Source of the DNA: a virus
Lineage: Duplodnaviria > Caudoviricetes
IMG/VR virus record: IMGVR_UViG_3300026121_000008
Span: 32,001 to 96,000 of that record
Direction: 5' to 3' (one strand)
Length of the DNA: 64,000 nt
The number at the start of each line of letters is the position of its first letter. Positions within the stretch are counted from its first letter, which is position 1. The notes below the pieces were generated by a model. The model did not search any database and was not told the DNA's origin. It worked only from the letters and a program-made list of their open reading frames with translations. This document shows, piece by piece, positions 2 through 64,000 of this stretch. Made by a program: the position numbers and the translations under genes.

Positions 2-2569
2 AAGGCGATTGAGAAAGAGCAGGGAAAAACCATCATCCCTGCGTTGGTCAAGTTAGAGGAAAAAGGTCCGCTCCAAAAGATGTTCCTCGCAGAGGAGGCG
101 ACGTATAAAGCGGATACCACTCAGCAGTCGTTGCTGGATCGTTTGATTCAGAAGAAGGCGGAAATCGATCAGGCGGCAACACTCGAAGAATCGACGCGGG
201 GTACTGCTGCAAACGAGTCGGCCAAACGTCTCTTGGAAAGAAAAAATGCGGAATTAGAATTCATTCAAGCCCAATTTGTCAGCATCCACGGGACGAATGA
301 GGCGGCAGCGGCGGAGGTCAAACTCTTCGAGGCGCAAAGCAAAAAGTGGGCCGCACAACGAGAAGTGTCGCGCACGCTGGAAGAACCGACAACAAAAGAA
401 AACAGCATCAAAGCCACCGACGCCTTGGCCGAGGCGGTGAAAAACGAGAAAAATGCGTGGAGTGATCTGGAAGCGGCCATCCGTAGCAATGTCAAGTTAG
501 ATCCCTACCAGCGGCAACAGCAAGTCGAGACCGCCGCACGAAACCGCCAACGTCGGGAAGATCAGGAGTTCGGAGATCGGGTGCGGGAGGCGAAGAAGCA
601 ACTCGGGCTGGACAAGTTCACGTTCCCCTTGGGGGGCACGGATGATACCGAACTTGCGGCGTTTACGCAAGGAGCTAAGAATTTTGAATTGGTGCTGGAA
701 GAGCGGACGAAGTCCCTTGCGTTGAAGACCCAAGCAGGAGCCGAACAGGCGAGGCAATCCGGGAAGACCCTGAAAGAGGCGTTGAAAGTCGTGTCCGAGT
801 CCGTCACAGACGCCTCGTCTGCCGAATTTCGGGAGTTGGTCAATAAGTATATCGCGTCCACAGGAGACGTAGCCACCGCGACCACGGCTCTGGGCAGGGC
901 CGCGCAAAATGCTCGACAAGCCCGATTGGCGTTCGCCGCTCCAGTTATCGCAGAACAGCGAGAAATTACCACGGATGCCACGAATAAGCGTATTGCTCAG
1001 GCCCAACGCACGGTCAACAGTCTTAACACGCAGGGACAGGTTCAGGGCAACGCCCTCGAAAATCTTCAACGACAGAATTTGATCCGGCTGGACGATTACT
1101 ATCGTCAACGGATGGATCGCATTAGGGAACAAGGGGAAGCGGAGATTAACCTTCAAGAAGAACAGATCAACCAAGCGTTGGAGTTACAGACACTGGCGAT
1201 CAAGTCGCGTGACCCGAAGCAGATCCGAGATGCAGAAGCGGCAGTCGCGAGGGAGCGGGAACAGGCCCGTGTGATTACCGGGAAAACGGAAGCCGAACTT
1301 GATAGGGAACGGCTCGACCGTGATGAGCGGCGTCGGGTGATGAACAAGGAGATCGAAGCGGGACTGATTGCTCAGAGTGCTCAATTTGGAGGGCAGAAGG
1401 AAGCCCTGATCCAATTGAACTACCAGTTGGATGAAGAGTACGACAAATTGTGGATTCTGGGGAATCCGCTGGCGGATCAACTCATCAAGATGAAGCGGCT
1501 CTCTGGTGAAGCAGAGATTGTCCGGAAAGAACGGGAACGCGCCCATCAGATTGAACTGGGGATTCAGACGGCCATCCAAGGCCAATTGGATTTACGACAG
1601 CAGATGCGGTCGGCTGAAGGAGCCAGTGACCGTCTGTTGAATCAACGGGGACGGATAACCGATGTGGAATTGACACGCCGGAACAATGAACGGGTACGAG
1701 AGGAAATGGCCGATAATCGGCAGCGACGACTGTCACAAGAAGAGCAACTGGCGAGTAACATTGTTGATTTCAAACGACAAGAAGGCGAATTGGTAATTCT
1801 GAGAGTCCAGCAAGGCTATGATGCCGTTGAGATCAATCAGCAGTTGCTTGTGCTGGAGCAGCAACATGCAGCGGCAATTCTCCAAAGTAAATTAGAGTTG
1901 GAGGGACTCAATACGGAATACGTAAACTTGGGGACTCAGATTGAACTCCAGAGTACCCGCATCCGAAAATCTATCGAAGATGGGTTCACTGACGCGATTA
2001 CCCGGACGATTGTCGATTTCAGGAAGGCCGGGGAAATCTGGAAACAGATGGCGAATCAGATCGTCAATGAGATTGTCAGCATTTTTGTGCGGTCTTTTGT
2101 GCAACGCGGCATCATCAATATGCTGGCGGCGTTTGGTGGCAGCGGTGGAACCGTGGGAAGCCTCGGTCGGGGATTCGTACCCGGTCGTGCTGAAGGCGGG
2201 GTTATCAGTGGCCCCGGTACCGGCACCAGCGATTCGGTGCCTGCGATGCTCTCCACGGGAGAGCACGTCATGCCTGCCTCCAAAACAGCCCAGTGGCTCC
2301 CCCTGCTGGAAGGTATCCGTCTGGGGAAGATCCTTCCCTCCTACGCCTTGGGCGGGGTGGTGGCGTTGCAATCAATTTCACTGCCTTCGGTCATCCCCCG
2401 TCGCTACGCCAACGGAGGCGTCGTGGTGTCTGATGGCGGGGCCTCTGCGGTGACCCCCGGAGGCGGTGGCCCCAGCAATATGGTGGTGTCCCTTCACCCG
2501 GATGCCATGAATATGACCCTCAGAGAGTGGTTGGAACACGAAGTCGTGCGTCAACAAGGGAGACGGTAA
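2..2569 (+). CDS. Tail tape measure protein, 3' part (frame open to the window edge)
   Basis: Long Ala/Glu/Gln/Arg-rich helical protein ending in the typical TMP C-terminal motif GRAEGGVISGPGTGTSDSVPAMLSTGEHV; followed by tail genes. Confidence 0.85.
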   Translation, partial: KAIEKEQGKTIIPALVKLEEKGPLQKMFLAEEATYKADTTQQSLLDRLIQKKAEIDQAATLEESTRGTAANESAKRLLERKNAELEFIQAQFVSIHGTNEAAAAEVKLFEAQSKKWAAQREVSRTLEEPTTKENSIKATDALAEAVKNEKNAWSDLEAAIRSNVKLDPYQRQQQVETAARNRQRREDQEFGDRVREAKKQLGLDKFTFPLGGTDDTELAAFTQGAKNFELVLEERTKSLALKTQAGAEQARQSGKTLKEALKVVSESVTDASSAEFRELVNKYIASTGDVATATTALGRAAQNARQARLAFAAPVIAEQREITTDATNKRIAQAQRTVNSLNTQGQVQGNALENLQRQNLIRLDDYYRQRMDRIREQGEAEINLQEEQINQALELQTLAIKSRDPKQIRDAEAAVAREREQARVITGKTEAELDRERLDRDERRRVMNKEIEAGLIAQSAQFGGQKEALIQLNYQLDEEYDKLWILGNPLADQLIKMKRLSGEAEIVRKERERAHQIELGIQTAIQGQLDLRQQMRSAEGASDRLLNQRGRITDVELTRRNNERVREEMADNRQRRLSQEEQLASNIVDFKRQEGELVILRVQQGYDAVEINQQLLVLEQQHAAAILQSKLELEGLNTEYVNLGTQIELQSTRIRKSIEDGFTDAITRTIVDFRKAGEIWKQMANQIVNEIVSIFVRSFVQRGIINMLAAFGGSGGTVGSLGRGFVPGRAEGGVISGPGTGTSDSVPAMLSTGEHVMPASKTAQWLPLLEGIRLGKILPSYALGGVVALQSISLPSVIPRRYANGGVVVSDGGASAVTPGGGGPSNMVVSLHPDAMNMTLREWLEHEVVRQQGRR

Positions 2570-2979
2570 TGCCACTGCAGTTTAGCGATACCCTGCGGAA
2601 CAACCGCATCAATCAGGTGGAGACGACCATCGGCAGCAGTCCGACCCTCCGCATCATGTCCGGAGCCATGCCTGCCAACTGTGCGGCGGCTGATGCGGGC
2701 ACGCTGCTGTGCTCGATGGTCCTGCCTGCCGACTGGCTCTCCAATGCCGCCTCTGGTGTCAAGTCCAAACAGGGGACGTGGACGGGCACTGCTGACGTGG
2801 CGGCAGGGGCAGGCACCAATGCAGGCTATTTCCGCCTGAAATCCGGAGCCACCACCCACTGTCAAGGCAACATCACGGTGTTCGGGGGAGGTGGGGCGAT
2901 GACCATCGATGACATCACGATCATTGCTGGCCAGCCGGTGAACGTGACGACCTTCGTCCTGACGGATGGCAACCCCTAG
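2569..2979 (+). CDS. Putative phage tail/structural protein (MPLQFSDTLRNNR...)
   Basis: ATG overlaps the TMP stop (TAATG); beta-rich, resembles small phage tail proteins. Confidence 0.65.
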   Translation: MPLQFSDTLRNNRINQVETTIGSSPTLRIMSGAMPANCAAADAGTLLCSMVLPADWLSNAASGVKSKQGTWTGTADVAAGAGTNAGYFRLKSGATTHCQGNITVFGGGGAMTIDDITIIAGQPVNVTTFVLTDGNP

Positions 2980-2985
2980 CAGGCC

Positions 2986-3498
2986 ATGGCGAACAATCTG
3001 GACCTGACCCAGACCGCAGACCCCGTCGTACTGGCGGGGACCGTCGCCCAGCATGAGCGCAACGTCGCGTTGGACCAGACCTGTGCGGCGACCTTGTCGG
3101 GCATGTTGGTCAAGGACCGGGCTCTGCATTTTGATCAGACGTGTGCCCCGGTCGGACTGACGTTCACGGCAGGGCTGGGCCGGGTGTTCAAGTTCGATAG
3201 CTCGACGGCAGAAGCCCGACTGACATCGTGGGTCGAAGTGGGTGATCCCCCGCTCCGTCCGCCCCGAAAGCCGGGTCTGTACAATCTGACGGGACGGGTG
3301 CTGGATTCGGGCGGAGCCATCCTGTCGTTCATCGGCCCGCCTTGGAGATCGGTGGAGTGGCGCATTATCAGTGGCACCGGGACGCTGACGCCCTTCACCG
3401 CGTACACCGATGCCCTCGGTCGGAGTTCGTGTCGGTTTGATGCCGGGTGGCATGGGCACAAGGTCGTGGTCGTCGTCGGCGTAGCCTACGTTCCGTGA
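2986..3498 (+). CDS. Putative virion protein with C-terminal Ig-like (invasin/Big_1-type) segment
   Basis: VEWRIISGTGTLTPFTAYTDALGRSS resembles the W...G.L.....TD..G.A pattern of bacterial Ig-like domains. Confidence 0.55.
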   Translation: MANNLDLTQTADPVVLAGTVAQHERNVALDQTCAATLSGMLVKDRALHFDQTCAPVGLTFTAGLGRVFKFDSSTAEARLTSWVEVGDPPLRPPRKPGLYNLTGRVLDSGGAILSFIGPPWRSVEWRIISGTGTLTPFTAYTDALGRSSCRFDAGWHGHKVVVVVGVAYVP

Positions 3499-17992: not shown

Positions 17993-19210
17993 GTGTTTGA
18001 TTTTGCGACGGCCTTTAAGGCCCATCTGCCGTTTATCGCGGTCAGGACGGACGACCCGGTGCATGTGAAAATCATGCTCCAGCATCTGTCTGGGAAGACC
18101 CTGCAGCCTCTGCCCATGGCCAAGCAGGCCACGGTGGGTGATAGTTATTTGTGGTGGACGGAAGACCTGTCCCAAGTCACCACAGAGATGTATCGGAAGC
18201 TCTGTGCGGCAGCAGCTAGCTGTGCGGTCATCAACCCGGACAAGCCCTCCCCGCTGGTGTACGACACGGGCATCCTCTCGACCCCGTCCGTGTTCTACCG
18301 GCAATATCTGAAGGAGTTCGTAGCCCCGGAGCAGATCGAGCCCGTGGTCATGCAGTTGAAGGGTCTGTCCCTCAAAGCGGCTCAAGAGGTGGTCCAACTG
18401 ACCATGGCCCGAACCGGGTCCATCGCGCCCCACGAGGTCCGCAAGACCCGGCAGATGATGGGCGGGGAGACCCCCGGCTTGACGACGCTGGAGACGGAGT
18501 ACGACTTCTACGAGTGGCCGGAGAGCCTGAAGAACTGGCTCGACCTGAACGACAGCTACTTTCTGGATCTGAACACGCCGATGCAATTAGTGCCACGGGG
18601 CCTGCTGTTAGCCGGTGACCCCGGTGTCGGCAAGTCCATGGCGGCACGGGTGTTGGCCAAGCACTGGGATGTGCCCCTGTTCCGTCTCGACGTCTCCACG
18701 TCCCTCAACCGCTATCTGGGCGAGTCGGAATCCCGTATCGCCCGCAACCTGAACGTCATCGAGCAGAATGCCCCGTGCGTGTGGCTCCTTGATGAAGCTG
18801 AGAAGCTGTTCGCCACGAACGGGGATGAGGGAACGACGCAACGCATCCTGTCCCAGATGCTCTGGTGGCTGCAGGCTCACACCTCACGGGTGCTGACCAT
18901 CATGACCACCAACAACCTGTCGATCCTTCCCAAGGAACTGTATCGGGCGGAGCGACTGGATAAGGTGCTCCATCTGGAGAAGCTCTCCCTCTCTGCCGCC
19001 AAACTGTTTGCGGCCAAGGTGTATCAATCTGTCACAGGTGACCTCATGCCGAAGAAGCGGCAGCGGCTGCTCCAAGAGGAGTTGGACCGAGGGGACAAGG
19101 GCACCTACTCCCATGCCGAAGTGCGCGTGTTGGTGTATGAGAGTATCAAAGAGAACGGATGGATGGTGAAGGAAACCGGGCCACTTGACATGGCTTTGCC
19201 CAAGGTGTAG
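17993..19210 (+). CDS. AAA+ ATPase (Ycf46-like architecture)
   Basis: Walker A GDPGVGKS; Walker B CVWLLDEAEK; YLGESE pore loop; PKELYRAERLD. Confidence 0.85.
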   Translation: MFDFATAFKAHLPFIAVRTDDPVHVKIMLQHLSGKTLQPLPMAKQATVGDSYLWWTEDLSQVTTEMYRKLCAAAASCAVINPDKPSPLVYDTGILSTPSVFYRQYLKEFVAPEQIEPVVMQLKGLSLKAAQEVVQLTMARTGSIAPHEVRKTRQMMGGETPGLTTLETEYDFYEWPESLKNWLDLNDSYFLDLNTPMQLVPRGLLLAGDPGVGKSMAARVLAKHWDVPLFRLDVSTSLNRYLGESESRIARNLNVIEQNAPCVWLLDEAEKLFATNGDEGTTQRILSQMLWWLQAHTSRVLTIMTTNNLSILPKELYRAERLDKVLHLEKLSLSAAKLFAAKVYQSVTGDLMPKKRQRLLQEELDRGDKGTYSHAEVRVLVYESIKENGWMVKETGPLDMALPKV

Positions 19211-54382: not shown

Positions 54383-57259
54383 ATGGACGCCTATACGAAC
54401 TTTGCTGTAGCAACGGTCGTAACAGCCCCCACTCCTCCGGGGTCCGGGGATCTCCTCGTGGTGAAGGCGGGCCAAGGCACACGGTTCCCTGCCGTGCCCT
54501 TTAATGCGTCCGTCTGGCCGAAGAATCTCCTCCCCGAACCCACCAACGCCGAGATCATCCGTGTCCTCGCCATTGACGGCGACACGCTGACGGTGGAGCG
54601 AGGGGCAGAAGCGACCTCGACGCGGAACATCCTCGCAGGCGACTGGGTGGCGGCGACCATCACGAAGAAGATGCTCGATGACCTGAGACAGTCAGGCATC
54701 GTTGGTCCTCCCGGTCCTGAAGGTCCAGTGGGTCCGGAAGGCCCCGAAGGTCCACCGGGAGCCGGTCTCGCTATCGAAGGCTCGGTGCCCACGTCCGATG
54801 ATCTCCCGCCCACGGGTGACCCCGGTGAAGGGTGGATCACCGAAGACACCGGACATCTGTGGGTCTGGGATTCGACGTCGGAGACGTGGATTGACACCGG
54901 ACAGATTCAAGGCCCTGTGGGACCGCAAGGTCCGCAAGGAGATCAAGGGCCGACTGGAGCCCAAGGGGATTCGGGTGTGCCCGGTCCCCAAGGTGATCCC
55001 GGCCCGGATGGCCCGCAAGGGATCGAGGGACCAGCGGGAAGCCAAGGTCCACAAGGTCCGGAAGGCACGATAGGTCCGGAAGGTCCGATTGGGCCGACTG
55101 GCCCTCCGGGGACGAGCATCGATCTGCAGGGCACGGTGCCCACTGCCGATGATCTCCCCTCTACCGCTCAGCCGGGAGACGCATGGATCACCGCCGATAC
55201 CGGACATCTCTGGGTCTGGGATGCGGACACCTCTGCATGGTTCGACGCGGGCGCGTTTCCCCAAGGTCCGCAGGGACCAGAAGGCCCGCAAGGCCCGGTC
55301 GGTCCCCAAGGCGAGATTGGCCCCGCAGGCTCCGAAGGTCCACAGGGGATTCAGGGCATCCAAGGCTCCACTGGCGTCCAAGGCATACAGGGCATCCCCG
55401 GCAACACCGGGGCGACTGGCCCAGCCGGGGCGACCGGGTCCACCGGCCCCGCAGGCCCCAAGGGTGATACGGGGCTCACAGGGGCCACAGGAGCGACCGG
55501 ACCCGCTGGAGCCACCGGACCCCCCGGAGAGACCGGGATCGCCGGTCCTGAAGGCCCCCAAGGGGTGCCCGGAGCCGATGGGGAGGACGGGGCGACTGGA
55601 CCTCCCGGAGCCACTGGCCCCGCAGGCCCTACGGGGGCACAGGGGCCTCAAGGCGTGGCGGGAGCGACCGGAGGCACTGGACCCGCCGGGGCGACCGGAT
55701 CGACCGGCCCAGAGGGGCCTATGGGTCCACAGGGGCCACAGGGCGTCCAAGGGCTGAAAGGCAATACCGGCGACCAAGGCCCTGCCGGGGTACAGGGGGA
55801 GATGGGGTTCCCCGGACCCGAAGGTCCGACTGGTCCGAAGGGCGATACCGGGAACACCGGAGCTACGGGATCGACCGGCCCTCAAGGCATCCAAGGTCCG
55901 ACTGGTCCCCAAGGTGTGCCCGGACCCGAAGGCCCCGATGGTCCCGAAGGCCCACCCGGAACCGGCATTGCCATCAAAGGCAGCGTTCCCACATACACGA
56001 GCCTGCCCTCCACGGGCAACGCCGAAGGCGATGCGTGGATCACGTCTGACACGGGTCACCTCTGGGTGTGGGATGGCGATTCATGGGTGGACGCAGGCAA
56101 TCTGCAAGGCCCACCCGGACCCGCAGGCCCCGAAGGTCCAGAGGGAGATCAGGGCATCCCCGGCTCGACCGGTCCTCAAGGCCCTGCTGGTGCGACGGGA
56201 TCGACGGGACCAGCCGGTCCCCAAGGTGATCCCGGACCTACCGGAGCCACGGGCTCGACAGGAGCTACCGGATCGACCGGTCCCAAGGGGGACACGGGCA
56301 ACACCGGCCCGCAAGGCATTCAAGGCATTCAGGGCACGACTGGCGCGACGGGATCGCAAGGCCCCAAAGGTGACACGGGTGATACCGGAGCGACCGGTCC
56401 CCAAGGCATCCAAGGTATTCAAGGGCCAGCCGGTCCCGAAGGTCCAGAGGGTCCACAAGGCCCACCGGGAGAAGACGGCTCAGGCACAGGCGGCAGTACC
56501 GATCTCGATTACGTGGGCGATTACACCTCCGGCACCTACAACGATGGGGACATCGTCATCGGGGCGGACGGCATCGCCTACATGTGCGTGAAGTCGGGGG
56601 TCACCACCCCCCCTGAACCATGGCCGGGGATCGGCGCAACGACCGCAGTCGGGCCTCCCGGACCCACCGGCCCGACTGGGCCAACAGGACCGGCTGGAGC
56701 CGCCGGAGCCGCAGGGGTGACTGGGCCAACCGGTGCGCCCGGAACTCCCGGTGAAGCGTGGTTCTCTGGTTCCGGTGTTCCGTCAGGATCGCTCTCCGGC
56801 AGCGTGGTCGGAGACTGGTACCTGAACACGTCGAACGGTGACGTCTACGAGAAGACTGGGAGTTCCGCGTGGACCCAGCGCATGAACTTGACCGGTCCTG
56901 CGGGAAGCACGGGAGCCGCTGGCATCACTCGTCCCTTCCGCCTCGGCCATACGTGGGCGTTGTATGGTGACGTGACCGCGATTACCACGATGCCCTCGAT
57001 GTTCGTCCCGTTCAACGGCACGCAGGCCGCGACGTTGATTGGATTGCGCCACAAGATTGGTTCCGGAACCAGTGTGGGTGTGCAGTTGAGGCGGAACGGG
57101 AGCAATCTCGGCAGCGTGATTACGGTCACCGGAACGGCGACCACGACGGCCTTCAGTCAGGCACTGGCCGCAGACGATGAATTGACGCTGGTCTTGTCGT
57201 CGCCAGCGGTGACCCCGTCGAATCTCACGGTCACGCTGTACATCGAGCACACGCCATGA
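54383..57259 (+). CDS. Collagen-like fibre protein
   Basis: Extensive Gly-X-Y runs interrupted by three G.VPT...LP.....[13 protein letters not shown] modules. Confidence 0.88.
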
Positions 57260-57900
57260 CGATTCAAGGCACAGGTGGCGCGGCGGCAACCAGTGTGGCG
57301 ATCCCGACGCACGCCGCAGGCGATTTGATCTGGGTCATCACGCGAGCGGCGAGTAACACGGCTCCAACCAAACCCACGGCGAGTGGGACCGTGCCGAACT
57401 GGACGGTGGCATACACCGGGGGCGCGAACACGCTCGCGTTTGTGTCTGCGTGGTTCGTGGCAACGGCGTCCACCACGACGACCGGAGCGTGGACCGGTGC
57501 CTCCCATATTGCTGTGATTGTGTTGCGTCCGATCCCCGGAATGCTCTTGGGAGTGAATGCGGCCCCAACCGGCACAGCCAATGGGTCGAACTCCCAGACG
57601 ATTGACTACCCGTCTTGTGCGCCCGTCACCACCATTAACGGTTCGTCGTCTGGATTGCGGATGGCGACACGCGGCACGGCGGCGACCTCGATGAACACGC
57701 CTCCCACTGGGTGGACGAATCAGTTGGTGCAACCGTCAGGAGCGGGCGCGTTGATCGCGGTGCATACGTTTGCGCCCTTGACGCAAAACATCGGTCTTCT
57801 CACGGTGAGTTTGACCGGCACGACGAATGCGCCGTGGCGTGCTCATTCGTTTGAGATCACAGAAAAACCGCCACAGCAGCGGATGATGGTCATCACATGA
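57256..57900 (+). CDS. Thr/Ala-rich putative virion protein
   Basis: ATGA coupling at both ends; [10 protein letters not shown] motif. Confidence 0.6.
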
Positions 57901-60900
57901 GCAGTCCCGATCCCGCTACCACGGAGTGGGTACCCATCTGGAATCCGATGGGAGCCGGAGAGACTGGTCCCGCTGGTCCGACTGGTCCCGCTGGTCCCGA
58001 AGGCCCGCCCGGACCCGGCATCGAACTGACCGGGACGGTCTCGACTCGTGCGGCATTGCCAACAACTGGTACGGCTGGTGATGCGTACCTCGTTGCGGAC
58101 ACCGGCCATGTCTGGGCGTGGGATTCCACGGCGAGTCACCCGGACTATGCGACTGTCCGTGCGTCCGACTCGTTCAATCGATCCAATGGGGCGTTGACTG
58201 GTTCCTCACTGGACCATGCGGCAGGAGGATTCGGATCGCTGCACTGGGCGAACGTGGCGACCACTTGGACGGTGACCAGTAACCGCGCCACGGCTGGAGG
58301 GACGGATGGCATCACCGTCGTGACGGATGCGCCCGATGAGATGCAGACGGCCATCGAAGCCACGATTGGTCTTCACAACGATGGGATCGGCCTCATCACC
58401 CGGTGGGCGGCGAACGGCGCAACAGGCAATGGCTATGTGTTTCGTGCGCTCGGTCACGGCGGTGGGCTGAGCATCGAGAAGAAGACGGACCTTGCCTACG
58501 TCACGCTGGCAACCAATGCGTTCCCCACGGGCGCGGGCTACACGTTGCGGTTCGAGGTCGATGGGCCGTACCTGAAGGGCTACGTCAACGGAGCCTTGTT
58601 CGTCGCCGCAGAGGACGACACCTATCTGCTCGGCAAGCCGGGTCTGTTGGGGATCTCCTCGTCCGACGCCATCGACAACTTCAAGTATTACCAAGCGGGC
58701 ACGAGTTCAGGCGGCTGGGTGGATGCCGGTCCCATCGTCGGCCCAGAAGGCCCGACCGGACCCGAAGGCCCCTCCGGAGGGGGACTGACCATCCAAGGTA
58801 TCGTTTCGACCGAAGAAGAGTTGCCAGAAACTGGCGATCCCGGAGATGTGTGGATCGTTGAAGACACCGGCCATCTCTGGGGATGGAAGGAAGCTGTCGG
58901 AGCGTGGACGGTCGTCGCCTCGGACTCGTTCATCCGCTCGAATGGTGCTCTGACCGGCTCCACTCTCGATAACACCTACGGCGGCAGTGGCTCACACCAG
59001 TGGCTGGATCTGAATCAGTCGTGGGCGATCAACACCAACCGATGCGAACCCGGAGGCGGGGGCATCGGGATGTCCTACCCGTACAACCTGTCTCCGTCTG
59101 CGAATCAGGCCGTCGAGTCCAAAGTAACGACCTCCAGCACAAACAGTCCCGGCATCATGGTGCGGCTCTCCCCGAATGGGGCGGATAGCAACGGCTACCT
59201 GTTCTACGTGGTGGGGTTGACCTCGTGTGAACTCTACAGAAAGACGGCGATGACGTTCACCAGTCTCGGGACTGGTCCAGCGGTGGCTACCGGATCGGTG
59301 CTGCGCTTGGAAGCGGAAGGCTCGACGCTCCGGGCGTACGTCAACGGCACGCTGGTGATCACCGGCACGGACAGTACCTACGCCACGGGTGGGATGGGGT
59401 TGTACGGCGGTGGCAACAGCATTTTTCACACCGAGACGAAGTTCTACGAAGCAGGCGGGGGCGGGGGGGAGTCTGGCTGGGTCGATCTTGGGCCGGTCGG
59501 CCTTGTCGTGCATCATGCGACTCACGAACCGGGTGGCACCGACGTCATCGAACTGACCGACGAGAACCTGCTGTTCGGTCGGGGTGACGGAGCCGGTGGC
59601 GGCGACATGCAGGAGATCAGCCTCGGCCCGTATCTGACCATGACCGGCACCGTGATTGACGTCGCGGGCGCAGGCATGACGCCGTTCATCGTGCAAGATC
59701 TCGGAGGAGCCAGACGGGCGTTGCAGAAAGCGGGGCGTGCCCCGGAGGGCTACCTGCCCAACGCACAGGAGCTATCGGCCCTGCCCTCCGGCTACGTCAC
59801 GGTGGAGACGGGGACGGGGGTGCTGGGGTCCATGTCCACCATCCCGTCGTCTGGACTCGCCTCGAATGTGGCCTTGACCGATGTCCAGAACGTGTTCAGA
59901 GAGGATCAGTCGATTGCGCGTGGCAGCATGGACGTGGGGCGGTTGTCCTTTGGGACGGCGGGCGCGGGCTATCTCGACTGGGATGGCCGCAATCTGCGGG
60001 TGGAAGCCTACGCCATCATCCCCGCGACCTCGGTCCCGCTCGGCCAACCTGATCAGGAGTTCGGAGAGATCTGGACGAGTGATGGCATCCGGGCGGGGCA
60101 ACATCCGGCCACGTCTGGGGCACTGGGATTTGCGAATGATCAGGGCATCTTCGCCCGGAACGAGGCTGATACCGAAGACATCGAACTGCTGAACCTCGGG
60201 TCAGATGATGTGGTCCGCGTGGCAGGCATCGATATCGTGGCCGCACTGGCGGAACCCGGTCCAGTGGGTCCGCAAGGCCCACAAGGCCCACAGGGCGTGA
60301 AAGGTGATACCGGAGCCACAGGGAGTCAAGGCCCACAGGGCGTCAAGGGAGATACCGGGGCACAGGGCACACAAGGTCCGCAGGGTATCCAAGGCCCACA
60401 GGGCGTGCCGCCAGCGAACTGCGCCATCACGAACCAGACGAACAATTTCACAGTGGCGCAGACGTTCTCGTCACAGGTCAACATGCCTTCCGGCATCCTT
60501 GAACTGTCCAGTGCTGCTCCAGAGGTCCGGTTCAAAGAAACGACCGCCCCGGTGGACCAGCGCATGTTTCGCTGGGTGGCCAATTCACAGGCGTTGATTC
60601 TGCAAGCCACGAATGATGCCGGAACGGTGGCGTCAACGACTCCGGTGTATTTCAGTCGAGCAGGCAGTGCCTACATCCAGCAGAACGTCTACGAGCGGGG
60701 CCGTCCGAACCCGATGGGCCGCTGGTATGACGTGCCATTTGCCGCTGGTAACTTCGCGGCCAATGGGGCGACGTGGACGGTTGCCGCCCAAGCCATCCTC
60801 CGGCATCGCGTCATGCTGATTGACAACACGATGTGGTGGAGTATCTATGTCTCGTGGTTCTCTGGAGGCAACACCCTGACCGGATCGGCCACACAGTTGT

Positions 60901-61094
60901 ATATCGGGATGCCGTGGAACATGGCCCCGTACCAGTTGAATCACATTGACTACGCCATTGACGGGGCGTCAGGCCGGGTCGCGCTCGATGTGAACCCCAG
61001 CGGGTCCACCATGGTGATCACACGCAAGGATGGCGCGAACTTCAACGGCACACCGGGGTTCATCGTCTCAGGACAGGCGTGGGAGATCCAGTAA
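57897..61094 (+). CDS. Fibre protein with short collagen runs and two lectin-like beta-sandwich domains
   Basis: Duplicated [15 protein letters not shown]...LR.E..G..L..YVNG domain; Gly-X-Y segments; fibre-like C-terminus. Confidence 0.8.
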
Positions 61095-61388: not shown

Positions 61389-61696
61389 GAATTGTGGTGA
61401 AGCGCGGCAACGACCAGATCATCTCGCTGATGGGCCTCAAGTCCACGGACGACAACATCTACCTGAACTCCGCCACGGTGACGGCCTCCCTCCGAGACTA
61501 CCGGGGCAACGTCGTCCCTCCTTTCGAGGAGGTGCCCATGGCCTACGTCACAGGGAGCGATGGGAATTACGAGTGGTTCATCGACTCCATTGACAGTATG
61601 CTCCCCAAGGGCGTCGAATATCAACTGGAAATTAAAGCGGAGCAGGCGGGCGTCAATTACAGGACCGTCCATGTCGTGTCGGTGGTGGACGCATGA
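61385..61696 (+). CDS. Small beta-rich structural protein (BppU-N-like)
   Basis: VKRGND...YLNSATVTASL...G.Y.W...YQLEI. Confidence 0.5.
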   Translation: MRIVVKRGNDQIISLMGLKSTDDNIYLNSATVTASLRDYRGNVVPPFEEVPMAYVTGSDGNYEWFIDSIDSMLPKGVEYQLEIKAEQAGVNYRTVHVVSVVDA

Positions 61697-61875
61697 CCTA
61701 CGCCCAGATTCTCAAGTGGGATGTTCGCAAAAACAAGAAGGCGAAGTTCCTGCGGGTGTCTCAGGCGGCACGCGCCCGGTTCCCGAAACACCGTCTCCGT
61801 GGAGCCCAAGAAGTGCCCATGGACCTCGATAAAATCAATGCGTCGTGGAGTATGACGCAGAAACCACAGGGGTGA
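61693..61875 (+). CDS. Small basic protein carrying the YAQILKWD tag
   Basis: ATGA coupling; shares its N-terminal motif with the two ART ORFs. Confidence 0.6.
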   Translation: MTYAQILKWDVRKNKKAKFLRVSQAARARFPKHRLRGAQEVPMDLDKINASWSMTQKPQG

Positions 61876-61880
61876 TCTTC

Positions 61881-62255
61881 ATGCCAGTCTATGGAACCGG
61901 AACCGTTGCGACCTTGACCCCCGGCTACCCAGCGGTGGTCTGGAACGATGAGAACATCACGATGAGCGGGAATGGGCAGAACAGTCAAGCCATCAACATG
62001 AAGCGGCACGCCAACATGCCGAACTGCCTCTCGGTGGAGATCCTGTTTGCCGCCACTCCGGGGACGTTTGCGGTGGATCTCCAAACGGCAGACACCAACG
62101 AGGAAAAGTACTACGTCACCAAAGCCACACTGAACACCGGGCTGAACACCACGTTCGTGGGCCGCATCGAAGTGATGAACATCGTGGCCAAGTTCGCTCG
62201 TCTGAAGATGGTCACACTGACCAATGCCGTGAAAGTGACCGCTCGGATCTTCTGA
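61881..62255 (+). CDS. Putative structural (beta-sandwich) protein
   Basis: Strong coding codon bias; late-operon context. Confidence 0.6.
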   Translation: MPVYGTGTVATLTPGYPAVVWNDENITMSGNGQNSQAINMKRHANMPNCLSVEILFAATPGTFAVDLQTADTNEEKYYVTKATLNTGLNTTFVGRIEVMNIVAKFARLKMVTLTNAVKVTARIF

Positions 62256-62262
62256 GGTGATC

Positions 62263-62973
62263 ATGGGGTATGTCCAAAATTTCTACGCCCAGAACACGGT
62301 GGCGTCGGACTTTAGCGGCCCGGTCACACTGGCCGCTGATACCTCGGCGTGTGATCTGCTCCTTATCTGTGGACGTTGGGAGAATCCGACTGCGCCCACG
62401 GTGGATGACAACAAAGGCAATACGTGGACCCCTGTGGGAACACCCGTCGCGGGACGACAGGTGGGCATCTGGTGGTGTCAGCACCCGACTGTCGGCGCGG
62501 GCCACACGTTTCATATGGGCGGCAGTTGGTACATGCAGATCATCGTGTTGGGATTTGCCGGGTCGGGTGTGGCACCGAAGGATCAGCACCTCGGGGTGAT
62601 CACAGCGAACGACCCCATTACGCTGGGACCGATTACGCCCACTGCCAACGGGGAATTAGTGGTGTCGGTGATCATGGCAGCGGGGAATGGAGCGACGACC
62701 ACCGCGAGTGCGCCCTTCATCGTGATGACGGGAGACAAGCATCTCAGCATGGCGACGGCCTATGCGATTCAGGCGACTGCTGCGCCGATCTCCGTTACGA
62801 TGTCTTCCTCGCCGGGGACGGGTGTCCCCGGTCTGATCGCGTCGTTCAAGGGAGTTGCTGTGCAGACAGCCTCCGTATTGACGTTGACACCCTGTGATCA
62901 AGTCACGGTGGGGACGCTGTCGGCTCAGGGAGGGCTCGTCCAGACGGTGACTCCCTGTGGGGACGTGGACTGA
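62263..62973 (+). CDS. Putative virion protein; paralog of the repeated domain of 15995-17518
   Basis: DNKGNTWT...PTVGAGHTF...ITPTANGELVVS...AYAIQATAAPI. Confidence 0.65.
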   Translation: MGYVQNFYAQNTVASDFSGPVTLAADTSACDLLLICGRWENPTAPTVDDNKGNTWTPVGTPVAGRQVGIWWCQHPTVGAGHTFHMGGSWYMQIIVLGFAGSGVAPKDQHLGVITANDPITLGPITPTANGELVVSVIMAAGNGATTTASAPFIVMTGDKHLSMATAYAIQATAAPISVTMSSSPGTGVPGLIASFKGVAVQTASVLTLTPCDQVTVGTLSAQGGLVQTVTPCGDVD

Positions 62974-63623
62974 TGCTGGTCGATCAGCTTCGCGCCGAGT
63001 ACCGAGACCGCTTTGCGGTGAAGCGGGACTATCTCTGGGCGTTGAAGTACGATCCTGCCCAACCCAGAGATGCCGAAGGTCAGTGGACGAAGATGACCGA
63101 AGGCGCGGCGAAGGATTTTGACAAAGCCCTCTATGATAAACTCCAGCGAGGTAACGACACCAATTTCGCTATTTTTGATTATGTGCAGGGAGGGGCTCGA
63201 TATACGAATGAGCATCTCCGTGCTGGGAAGGTCCGATATAACGACCGGCGAAAAGTCGAACTCATTGATGCCCAGATGCAGCGAAATCCTCTCACGGAAG
63301 ACGCGACGTTGGCCCGCACGATCCTCGATCAGGTCGTGAACACACTCAAGGTTGGAGACGTCTTTCAGGATAATGGCTACGTATCCACCACGAAAAATCT
63401 CTCAAAAATCGAGGATATCCGTAAGGATATTGGAGCCAATCCAACTCGGCACTTCATGATGACCGTCTTGGCCCCCAAAGGATTGGGCCACATTGATGTG
63501 AATGAAGAACTCGGCGCACATGGCTACGAGGATCAAGAGGAAGTGATCCTTCCCCGTGGTACCCGGTTTGAGGTGGTGAGCAAAGGGCCGGGGAAGACGA
63601 TGACCGTGAAGGTGCTCCAGTGA
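62973..63623 (+). CDS. ADP-ribosyltransferase (R-S-E clade, VIP2/C3/Alt-like) with N-terminal LKYDPAQPRD tag
   Basis: AIFDY.......NEHLR.G; TLAR; FQDNGYVSTT; DQEEVILPRGTRFEV. Confidence 0.88.
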   Translation: MLVDQLRAEYRDRFAVKRDYLWALKYDPAQPRDAEGQWTKMTEGAAKDFDKALYDKLQRGNDTNFAIFDYVQGGARYTNEHLRAGKVRYNDRRKVELIDAQMQRNPLTEDATLARTILDQVVNTLKVGDVFQDNGYVSTTKNLSKIEDIRKDIGANPTRHFMMTVLAPKGLGHIDVNEELGAHGYEDQEEVILPRGTRFEVVSKGPGKTMTVKVLQ

Positions 63624-64000
63624 GTGATCCTAATGCCGCCCGGTTTGAAATGCGGGAGGGCGATTTCTTCATTATCACGAAATTTTCTGGAGTGCTGAAG
63701 TACGATCCCGATCAGCCCCGTGACAAGCAGGGACAATGGTCGAAGACTACAGGCCGTAGCTTTACCAGTGACGAGGGCTACGAGTTCCATGAGAAAGGGC
63801 CGGGAGCCAAGTGGGCCAAGGCCATGCCCTACGAGGATCAGCGGGCATTGAGTGGTTATGCCGGGTTTGGGTACCACGACATCAACGATTTGCGGCGAGG
63901 CACGTATAAACCCCCGATTAAAGCGCATTTTGTGCGGGCATCGAGCAAGGAGGAGCACGAAGCCTCGACCATGACGGTCGATGAAGAATATCTCAAACAT
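63620..64000 (+). CDS. Second tagged ADP-ribosyltransferase-like protein, 5' part (runs off the window; not in the ORF track)
   Basis: GTGA coupling; my translation contains FSGVLKYDPDQPRDKQGQWSK and EDQRALSGYAGFGYHDINDLRRG (ART N-terminal helices). Confidence 0.7.
   Translation, partial: MSDPNAARFEMREGDFFIITKFSGVLKYDPDQPRDKQGQWSKTTGRSFTSDEGYEFHEKGPGAKWAKAMPYEDQRALSGYAGFGYHDINDLRRGTYKPPIKAHFVRASSKEEHEASTMTVDEEYLKH

Follow-up and report, generated by a model that had tools for sequence, protein, structure and literature searches.

Why should two adjacent genes of a tailed phage, whose products are alike almost nowhere else, begin with the same short peptide, and why should they lie some 77 kb from the head genes beside which the other copies of that peptide are found? 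The question is raised by the end of a stretch of 64,000 nucleotides (hereafter, the window), corresponding to bases 32001-96000 of the 111,942-bp IMG/VR viral record IMGVR_UViG_3300026121_000008, a 112-kb phage related to Delepquintavirus-like siphophages, where two predicted ADP-ribosyltransferases (ARTs) are encoded one after the other. We will refer to these genes as ART1 and ART2, and to the peptide, of about 15 residues and of the form [KR]-[FYW]-[DN]-x-x-[QK]-[PH]-R-[DG]-x-x-G-x-[WF], as the tag (coordinates in Table 1). The tag is a conserved and portable short linear motif, disordered and N-terminal to effector modules, which is tied in cis and by gene order to the portal vertex. With a probability that we put at roughly 0.55, it would be a peptide that both joins modules and addresses effectors to the capsid for injection, standing beside a lineage-specific probable cut site.

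A sequence-only reading of the window had pointed to three copies of the motif, and the three strings are indeed present: YLWALKYD-PAQPRDAEGQW in ART1 (63030-63086), FSGVLKYD-PDQPRDKQGQW in ART2 (63683-63739) and YAQILKWD in a 60-aa open reading frame (ORF; 61699-61722). When the whole genome was scanned in six frames with an independent profile, built from 26 tags of other viral contigs only, ART2 and ART1 were the top two matches (bit scores in Table 1), and the core expression was found six times, against 0.03 in codon shuffles. The third string is not a tag: it is without the QPRD..G.W half, it goes undetected by the profile, and both positional orthologues of its ORF (in the relatives L031 and L032) align from K16 on, the N-terminal segment with YAQILKWD being absent from them. 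Furthermore, L-[KR]-[FYW]-[DN] alone occurs 17 times against about seven expected by chance from codon shuffles, a roughly twofold enrichment, and we treat YAQILKWD as a chance occurrence. Taking an independent-profile match together with a flexible position before a folded module as the mark of the family, ART1 and ART2 belong to it and the 60-aa ORF does not. That two adjacent genes both encode ARTs might suggest a chance resemblance or the remnant of a recent duplication of one ART gene, the latter having been named beforehand as the result that would undo the idea of a label. Nonetheless, BLASTP aligns only 29 residues around the tag between ART1 and ART2 (15/29 identical, 52%), with no similarity beyond that region; the profile ranks both genes at the top, the shuffles yield next to nothing, and thousands of instances exist elsewhere, so that duplication is excluded and this explanation as a whole is hardly credible. 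In this sense, the tag stands as a modular label common to otherwise unrelated enzymes.

Both genes encode predicted VIP2/C3-type R-S-E ADP-ribosyltransferases, as judged by profile, catalytic motifs and fold. ART1, which had been taken for a complete ART, matches Pfam PF03496 (ADPrib_exo_Tox) with an E-value of 1.3e-8 and 34.9 bits (cut-off 23.4). ART2 itself stays under that cut-off (21.1 bits), and has 40 homologues with E-values down to 1e-152, many of them with precomputed PF03496 or PF18760 matches. It does run past the window, as had been noticed, and by 861 nt; rather than the N-terminal ART helices alone, the full gene encodes a complete 413-aa ART of the R-S-ExE type. In the ART1 family alignment R115, S138-T139-T140 and Q188-x-E190 are all invariant, and the same holds for R216 and S245-T246 across ART2 and its 40 relatives, with E361-x-E363 conserved to at least 90%; the QxE signature of the one and the ExE signature of the other make it probable that ART1 and ART2 differ in their targets. 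A phmmer search of ART1 against PDB sequences returned no match, and a fold comparison was thus needed. The AlphaFold2 (AF2) models of ART1 (mean predicted local distance difference test, pLDDT, 78.4) and ART2 (pLDDT 88.6; predicted template modelling score, pTM, 0.81) both match VIP2, C3, CDTa, Certhrax and Plx2a in Foldseek with probability 1.0, the best matches being VIP2 and C3 exoenzymes for ART1, and VIP2, CDTa, Certhrax and C3 for ART2. In ART1 residues 9-47 are mostly below a pLDDT of 50 and the confident fold begins at about residue 50; in ART2 residues 1-28 are below 50, residues 31-40 are at about 58, and the confident fold begins at about residue 44. This difference in confidence between leader plus tag and ART bodies indicates that the tag is, in the models, a flexible N-terminal extension outside the ART fold.

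Where else in this genome does the tag occur? A loose expression gives 20 coding-strand matches (3 of them in short spurious frames) and one on the other strand, and 17 tags are real. Fifteen of these 17 lie within genome 1-18 kb, between the portal gene (109652-111532) and the head protease gene of the Peptidase_S78_2/XkdF type (18575-19162, E 1.2e-22), the record being a closed circle, as the frame that runs off its 3' end (from 111525) continues uninterrupted and in phase in the ORF entering at its 5' end (3 to 3404). The ORF reading through the contig ends (L003:19525-19942 plus L002:3-3404) contains ...K-A-L-P-K-V-A-Y-D-P-G-Q-A-R-D-A-H-G-R-W..., and the first cargo polyprotein begins directly after the portal gene, across those ends. 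The tags of ART1 and ART2 are the only ones outside this head array and, at the same time, the nearest to the canonical Q-P-R-D..G-Q-W. Broadly, the tags of the head array precede GNAT plus SprT-like, APH-like kinase and PI3/4-kinase-like modules and several unknown ones, and also others that belong to a MuF-containing protein of 1,266 aa. The 15 clearest tags, both ARTs included, line up in register; P and G never vary among them, and at least 90% have Lys at -1. W-D-E-x-x-H-P-R-D is an abundant variant with no D-P, which rules out self-cleavage at Asp-Pro.

The tag is by no means restricted to this phage, and the scan of genome and relatives that had been proposed does bring up diverse cargo beside portal, MuF and head-protease genes. 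A back-translated pattern, K-Y-D-P-x-Q-P-R-D-x-x-G-x-W, was found in 22 viral contigs, and the pattern without its two upstream residues at no fewer than 120 loci. An aromatic residue precedes D-P in every one of 144 unique instances, a feature that the pattern did not require; Lys at -2 occurs in only 33%, and the W of the tag is followed by T or S and then by a Gly-rich stretch. Of 117 cases, 65 have the tag beyond residue 120 of the ORF and 38 have it inside the first 60 residues. With a profile of the genome's own tags, 1,677 cluster representatives (50% identity) were matched at E <=0.001 and 347 at <=1e-10, the former number being a lower bound, since single-copy proteins cannot reach significance; as many as 20 copies are found in one protein of 7,334 aa. 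The best profile matches contain MuF, six ART-PolyVal domains, ADPrib_exo_Tox, GNAT and LigT. The tag precedes ART and other toxin domains in proteins of MuF/portal type, as the sequence-only reading had stated of such motifs in MuF-type proteins. In 147 proteins with 727 tags the median spacing is 250 aa, the first tag is at about residue 37 and about 277 residues extend beyond the last one, from which the architecture is leader-[tag-module]n, each tag belonging to the module after it. In a census of 79 complete tag-bearing ORFs from unrelated viral contigs, portal domains (of four Pfam families) were present in 15, MuF in 5 and an S78 prohead protease in 1, and the cargo comprises 12 ARTs of four families, Zeta toxins, CDI/REase nucleases, GNATs, Acb1 and topoisomerase IB.

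In cultured actinophages, a protein of the head module opens directly with the tag (M-S-F-N-P-R-Q-P-R-D...). These tag-first proteins, e.g., of Nocardia phage P3.1 (L029:3489-4199) and Mycobacterium phage Damien (gp10, L030:3507-4280), and also of Konstantine and Predator, are basic and of low complexity; they are annotated as “capsid maturation protease” and have no Pfam protease domain, which makes the annotation doubtful. Only the ART bodies of Gordonia and Streptomyces phages match ART1 among cultured phages, ART2 has no tblastn match among them, and the actinophage ART-containing proteins scanned (LazerLemon gp8, GMA6 Orf11-14) have no tags. The tag itself has no model in Pfam, NCBIfam or PHROGs. 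That it is found in phages of hosts as distant as Actinobacteria and Proteobacteria, and that a disordered N-terminal motif with a Gly-rich linker would suit a threading or hub-binding peptide, could speak for a role after injection, the tag either binding a conserved host factor or signalling the threading or translocation of its protein through the portal and tail channel. On the other hand, its strongest association is with the portal and MuF in cis and with head modules, no result points to a host partner, and up to 20 copies per polypeptide would be odd for the ligand of a host hub; we therefore regard a host-directed motif of this kind as quite improbable.

The residues just upstream of the core follow another rule. 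Positions -1 to -4 are alike within a protein and different between proteins (z 13-24), with z about 6 at -5 and -6, and this within-protein consistency would suit a phage-specific protease site beside a universal core. A lineage-specific element of four residues (phi-x-K here) next to the core thus plausibly fits a cut site adjoining a docking peptide. Cleavage beside the tag is therefore plausible, secondary to an address role. Taken further, the tag could be a processing signal only, that is, a recognition or catalytic element for the (auto)proteolytic separation of modules and removal of leaders, with head entry secured by fusion to the portal or MuF, or by the leaders. The presence of a tag at every module boundary, including those between portal or MuF and cargo (where release is needed and an address is not), the lineage-specific element directly upstream, and the interchangeability of split and fused forms at the tags all agree with this explanation. 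Nonetheless, even the first module, with a leader of only 5-40 residues ahead of it, has its tag, and proteins of the Damien type have it at their very N-terminus, with almost nothing to remove; a 14-residue core with an invariant aromatic residue (144/144) far exceeds the known needs of prohead-protease sites; the same core occurs with different proteases (XkdF here, S78 in one census ORF, Mu-like_Pro_N in L033, another phage); and the stand-alone ARTs lie far from the head genes without any other visible head determinant. We consider processing alone unlikely.

The relatives of ART1 and ART2 tell how the ART cassettes have been arranged. The ART2 body is preceded in nearly all of its relatives by the tag or a variant (Q-P-R-D..G-Q-W, Q-P-R-G-P-K-G-S..G-G-R-W, H-P-R...G-R-F or G-S-G-N-F-G-H-A-G-R-P-G..G-G-S), and starts directly after it with a conserved G-R-[ST]-F-T-S-[DE]-E-G-Y; in many, the body takes second or third place among the modules of a multi-tag protein. 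The leader and tag of ART1, 41 residues together, are 61% and 52% identical to the N-termini of two proteins of relatives (P0018 and P0014, respectively), and also match L032:6053-7771. In P0018 and P0014 this ART1-type leader and tag head different first modules, which are followed by a second tag and the ART2 body. The cassette is syntenic in two relatives, 114-118 kb in size, being preceded there by the same small late ORFs and followed by a PPDK-like gene, and orthologues of ART1 and ART2 in relatives are proteins of two or three modules; that of ART1 in L032 forms the opening module of a 572-aa protein with two tags. In L033, an ART1 homologue (P0008) belongs to the head-proximal array, just upstream of the genes for a Mu-like prohead protease (Mu-like_Pro_N) and the major capsid protein. 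The same ART bodies thus occur solo, fused, in head-proximal arrays and at the tail-distal locus. Since one leader and tag can head different cargo, and the ART bodies are solo or fused depending on the relative, modules are, to judge from these arrangements, swapped, fused and split at the tags.

In other relatives the ART1 body also follows G-H-P-F-R-G-N-Q-W and G-G-Q-F junctions. Other junctions before the same ART bodies are L-G-D-V-E-G-H-P-F-R-G-N-Q-W and G-S-G-N-F-G-H-A-G-R-P-G-x-x-G-G-S (P0006, P0008, L033; P0031, P0037, P0042-P0049), and such variety suggests a wider superfamily of junction tags. The leader of ART2 offers a second recurring element, D-P-x-A-x-R-F-x-x-x-x-G-D-F-x-I-[IV] (ART2 residues 3-20, window 63626-63680), which is present in several phages, found only at true starts of cargo genes, and also seen in P0036 (L032:8001) and at L033:8654. 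A conserved 77-aa ORF, which could be an immunity or partner protein, lies beside the ART cassettes in two relatives (L031:10967-11200, L032:7768-8001), with no counterpart in this genome.

The array of tagged genes had been expected to continue beyond position 64000, and in this the expectation went too far. What follows is the remainder of ART2 and, overlapping its end (TGATG), a 47-aa ORF (L003:4861-5004, genome 96861-97004, 861-1004 nt past the window); no further tags come after it, the next genes being PPDK-like, two ThyX-like, DNA polymerase, transposase and portal. This ORF resembles the leader with which a 370-aa tagged protein of L031 begins at the corresponding position (47% identity, E 1e-10); it terminates inside the tag (...V-L-K-F-A-P-K-K-P-A-stop), and thus reads as the leader-only remnant of a decayed third cassette. 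A deletion falling exactly within the tag of the third cassette, together with the same leader and tag heading different cargo and the same ART body following different tag variants, is what would be expected if tags were recombination handles or neutral linkers, persisting as breakpoints of cassette exchange, as VENN/pre-toxin motifs of polymorphic toxins do, with no function at the protein level. The two ART tags have only 37/60 nucleotides in common, so their conservation is at the protein level, and the maintenance of the aromatic residue, P-R-D and G-x-W across 1,677 clusters below 50% identity requires selection on the peptide; a purely recombinational role is very unlikely.

How does this system compare with known ones? 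Encapsulin cargo-loading peptides are short conserved peptides which, with a flexible linker, address enzymes into an HK97-fold shell. Pre-toxin junctions (VENN, and PxxxxDPxGL of Rhs), as in Rhs and CdiA proteins, demarcate swappable toxin cassettes and can be a cleavage site. With both, the tag would share a logic by analogy, and no homology is claimed, as sequences and positions differ, the tag being N-terminal to each module. The T4 capsid-targeting sequence (CTS), a leader some 10 residues long, is cut off at L/I-x-E, and the packaging of Alt is proven. In T4, Alt and the internal proteins IPI-III carry this sequence, which is cut by the prohead protease gp21 (as summarized in PMC5512222). 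As with Alt, an ART is here proposed to be expressed late, loaded into the head through an N-terminal peptide, trimmed by a protease and injected. Unlike the CTS, to which it has no sequence similarity, the tag has a core of 14-15 residues and is also internal and repeated; no gp21-type cut at L/I-x-E applies, the protease being of the Peptidase_S78_2/XkdF type; and, whereas packaging is proven for Alt, for ART1 and ART2 it is a proposal.

Phage polyvalent proteins, with two to fifteen effector domains per polypeptide, have likewise been proposed to travel inside the head and to be injected (Iyer, Burroughs, Anand, de Souza, and Aravind, 2017; PMC5512222). The cargo is the same (ART-PolyVal, ADPrib_exo_Tox, GNAT, MuF, metallopeptidase-like domains and nucleases), as is the portal/MuF context, and the top tag-bearing proteins contain polyvalent-family domains. 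ART1 and ART2 share the virion-gene context and the common domains, but not the multidomain build, each being one module in a stand-alone gene at the end of the tail-fibre block. MuF polymorphic toxins, in turn, carry ART and other toxin domains on a head-internal MuF scaffold (Jamet et al., 2017; PMC5576092). Residues 26-204 of ART1, including the second half of its tag, align to the C-terminal part of phrog_595, a family which also holds MuF. Neither ART1 nor ART2 has a MuF match, at the N-terminus or elsewhere, and the MuF toxins were described from temperate phages of Firmicutes, in contrast to the Delepquintavirus-like 112-kb relative studied here. The junction peptide is not mentioned under the keywords searched in the polyvalent-protein paper, nor did keywords bring up a junction motif in the MuF-toxin paper; neither was it found described in the wider literature, a full-text search for “QPRD” included, and on capsid-targeting or cargo motifs only work on T4, SPN3US, P1 and crAss turned up. 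Thus, the system would work like T4 Alt with its CTS, like polyvalent proteins and like MuF toxins, yet ART1 and ART2 fall outside some defining feature of all three, having one module only, no MuF, an unrelated peptide and a different protease.

In the reading that we favour, i.e., a junction and address peptide, ART1 and ART2 would be single-module members of a tagged set of head-cargo effectors, the decayed cassette after ART2 being a former third member, and a cargo protein would consist of a short leader, a tag of about 15 residues, a flexible linker and an enzyme module. Late in infection the tag would allow modules produced as proteins of their own, ART1 and ART2 among them, to enter the procapsid interior or gather at the portal vertex. 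The XkdF-type head protease might trim leaders and separate fused modules at the phage-specific residues just upstream of the tag (phi-x-K here). Together with the DNA, the enzymes would afterwards pass into the next host cell, in the manner of T4 Alt, and modify host targets by ADP-ribosylation, and the tags would double as breakpoints for the swapping, fusion, splitting and loss of cargo cassettes. Three observations argue for an address or retention peptide for the procapsid interior: every module, including the first, has its own copy of the tag; the tag stands at a free N-terminus in the Damien-type actinophage proteins; and the stand-alone ARTs keep it far from the head genes. That cargo 77 kb away is not fused to the portal or MuF argues, moreover, for a label acting in trans.

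Several points weigh on the other side. An address is redundant where the cargo is already fused to the portal or MuF, which favours a processing role and leaves that alternative with real weight. Internal duplication could partly explain the likeness of the upstream residues within a protein, and the Lys before the aromatic residue is present in only 33-38% of tags across phages, so that LK|YD, near which cleavage had been proposed, is not a general cut site. The ART genes are placed after the tail fibres, outside the head module, and their late expression is deduced only from orientation and overlapping start and stop codons. In the two nearest cultured phages by portal, Stenotrophomonas phage DLP_5 and Vibrio phage SIO-2, the scanned head-containing stretches of 23-26 kb have no tags. 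Finally, this phage is uncultured, and no tagged relative with a virion proteome was found.

A bolder version is that the tag is a portable and nearly universal address code of tailed phages, binding a conserved head component (portal, MuF or capsid interior) and sufficing to load any protein for injection, even when its gene lies far from the head module; we put this forward tentatively, the odds being against it. If it were true, scanning for the tag would list the injected effectors, anti-defence enzymes included, of thousands of uncultured phages. Capsid-borne proteins acting in the first seconds of infection are known mostly from a few model phages, and a sequence tag marking them would make the question searchable. 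The present one already links ARTs, kinases, GNATs, nucleases, Zeta toxins and the anti-CBASS Acb1 to portal/MuF proteins in more than 1,600 clusters. Furthermore, the locus behind the tail fibres, which is both conserved and fast-changing, shows that tagged effectors can have genes of their own, 77 kb away from those of the head, as a trans-acting label predicts. With two different ARTs under the same tag, the locus constitutes a natural test case, and a tag that proved portable could, in addition, serve as a tool to bring proteins into phage capsids.

Table 1. Features of the ART locus (window positions; residues are those of the encoded proteins; enzyme types are predicted).
Feature	Position	Strand	Remarks
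60-aa ORF with YAQILKWD	61693..61875	+	Not a tag bearer; no profile match
ART1	62973..63623	+	216-aa stand-alone tagged ADP-ribosyltransferase, R-S-QxE type
ART1 leader, residues 1-24	62973..63044	+	Low pLDDT; similar leaders in relatives
ART1 tag, residues 25-39	63045..63089	+	K25 then Y-D-P-A-Q-P-R-D-A-E-G-Q-W-T; 34.1 bits
ART1 catalytic signature	63315..63542	+	R115 63315-63317; S138-T139-T140 63384-63392; Q188-x-E190 63534-63542
ART2, residues 1-127 of 413	63620..64000	+	Full gene L003:3620-4861, to genome 96861
ART2 leader, residues 1-26	63620..63697	+	Family D-P-x-A-x-R-F-x-x-x-x-G-D-F-x-I-[IV]; pLDDT below 50
ART2 tag, residues 27-41	63698..63742	+	K27 then Y-D-P-D-Q-P-R-D-K-Q-G-Q-W-S; 36.8 bits

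The locus itself closes the structural block, in which five small ORFs stand between the collagen-like tail-fibre genes (window 54383-61094) and the pair of ART1 and ART2. The fibre genes encode two very large collagen-repeat proteins, of 958 and 1,065 aa, the second with repeated weak 3-keto-disaccharide-hydrolase/LamG-like segments. The ATG of ART1 overlaps the stop codon of an upstream 238-aa ORF, and the GTG start of ART2 overlaps the stop codon of ART1 (GTGA), bearing out the translational coupling of the two adjacent genes that had been noted. A simple terminator scan found no + strand terminator after ART2, so the end of the operon is not defined by that scan. The stretch directly downstream of the ART locus (genome 97139-102152, L003:5139-10152) encodes a PPDK-like protein of 660 aa (phrog_18609), whose orthologue in L031 carries PPDK_N/PEP-utilizers, and two proteins matching phrog_17568, a PHROG family annotated as thymidylate synthase (ThyX-like); the PPDK-like and the two ThyX-like genes may form a nucleotide-modification module.

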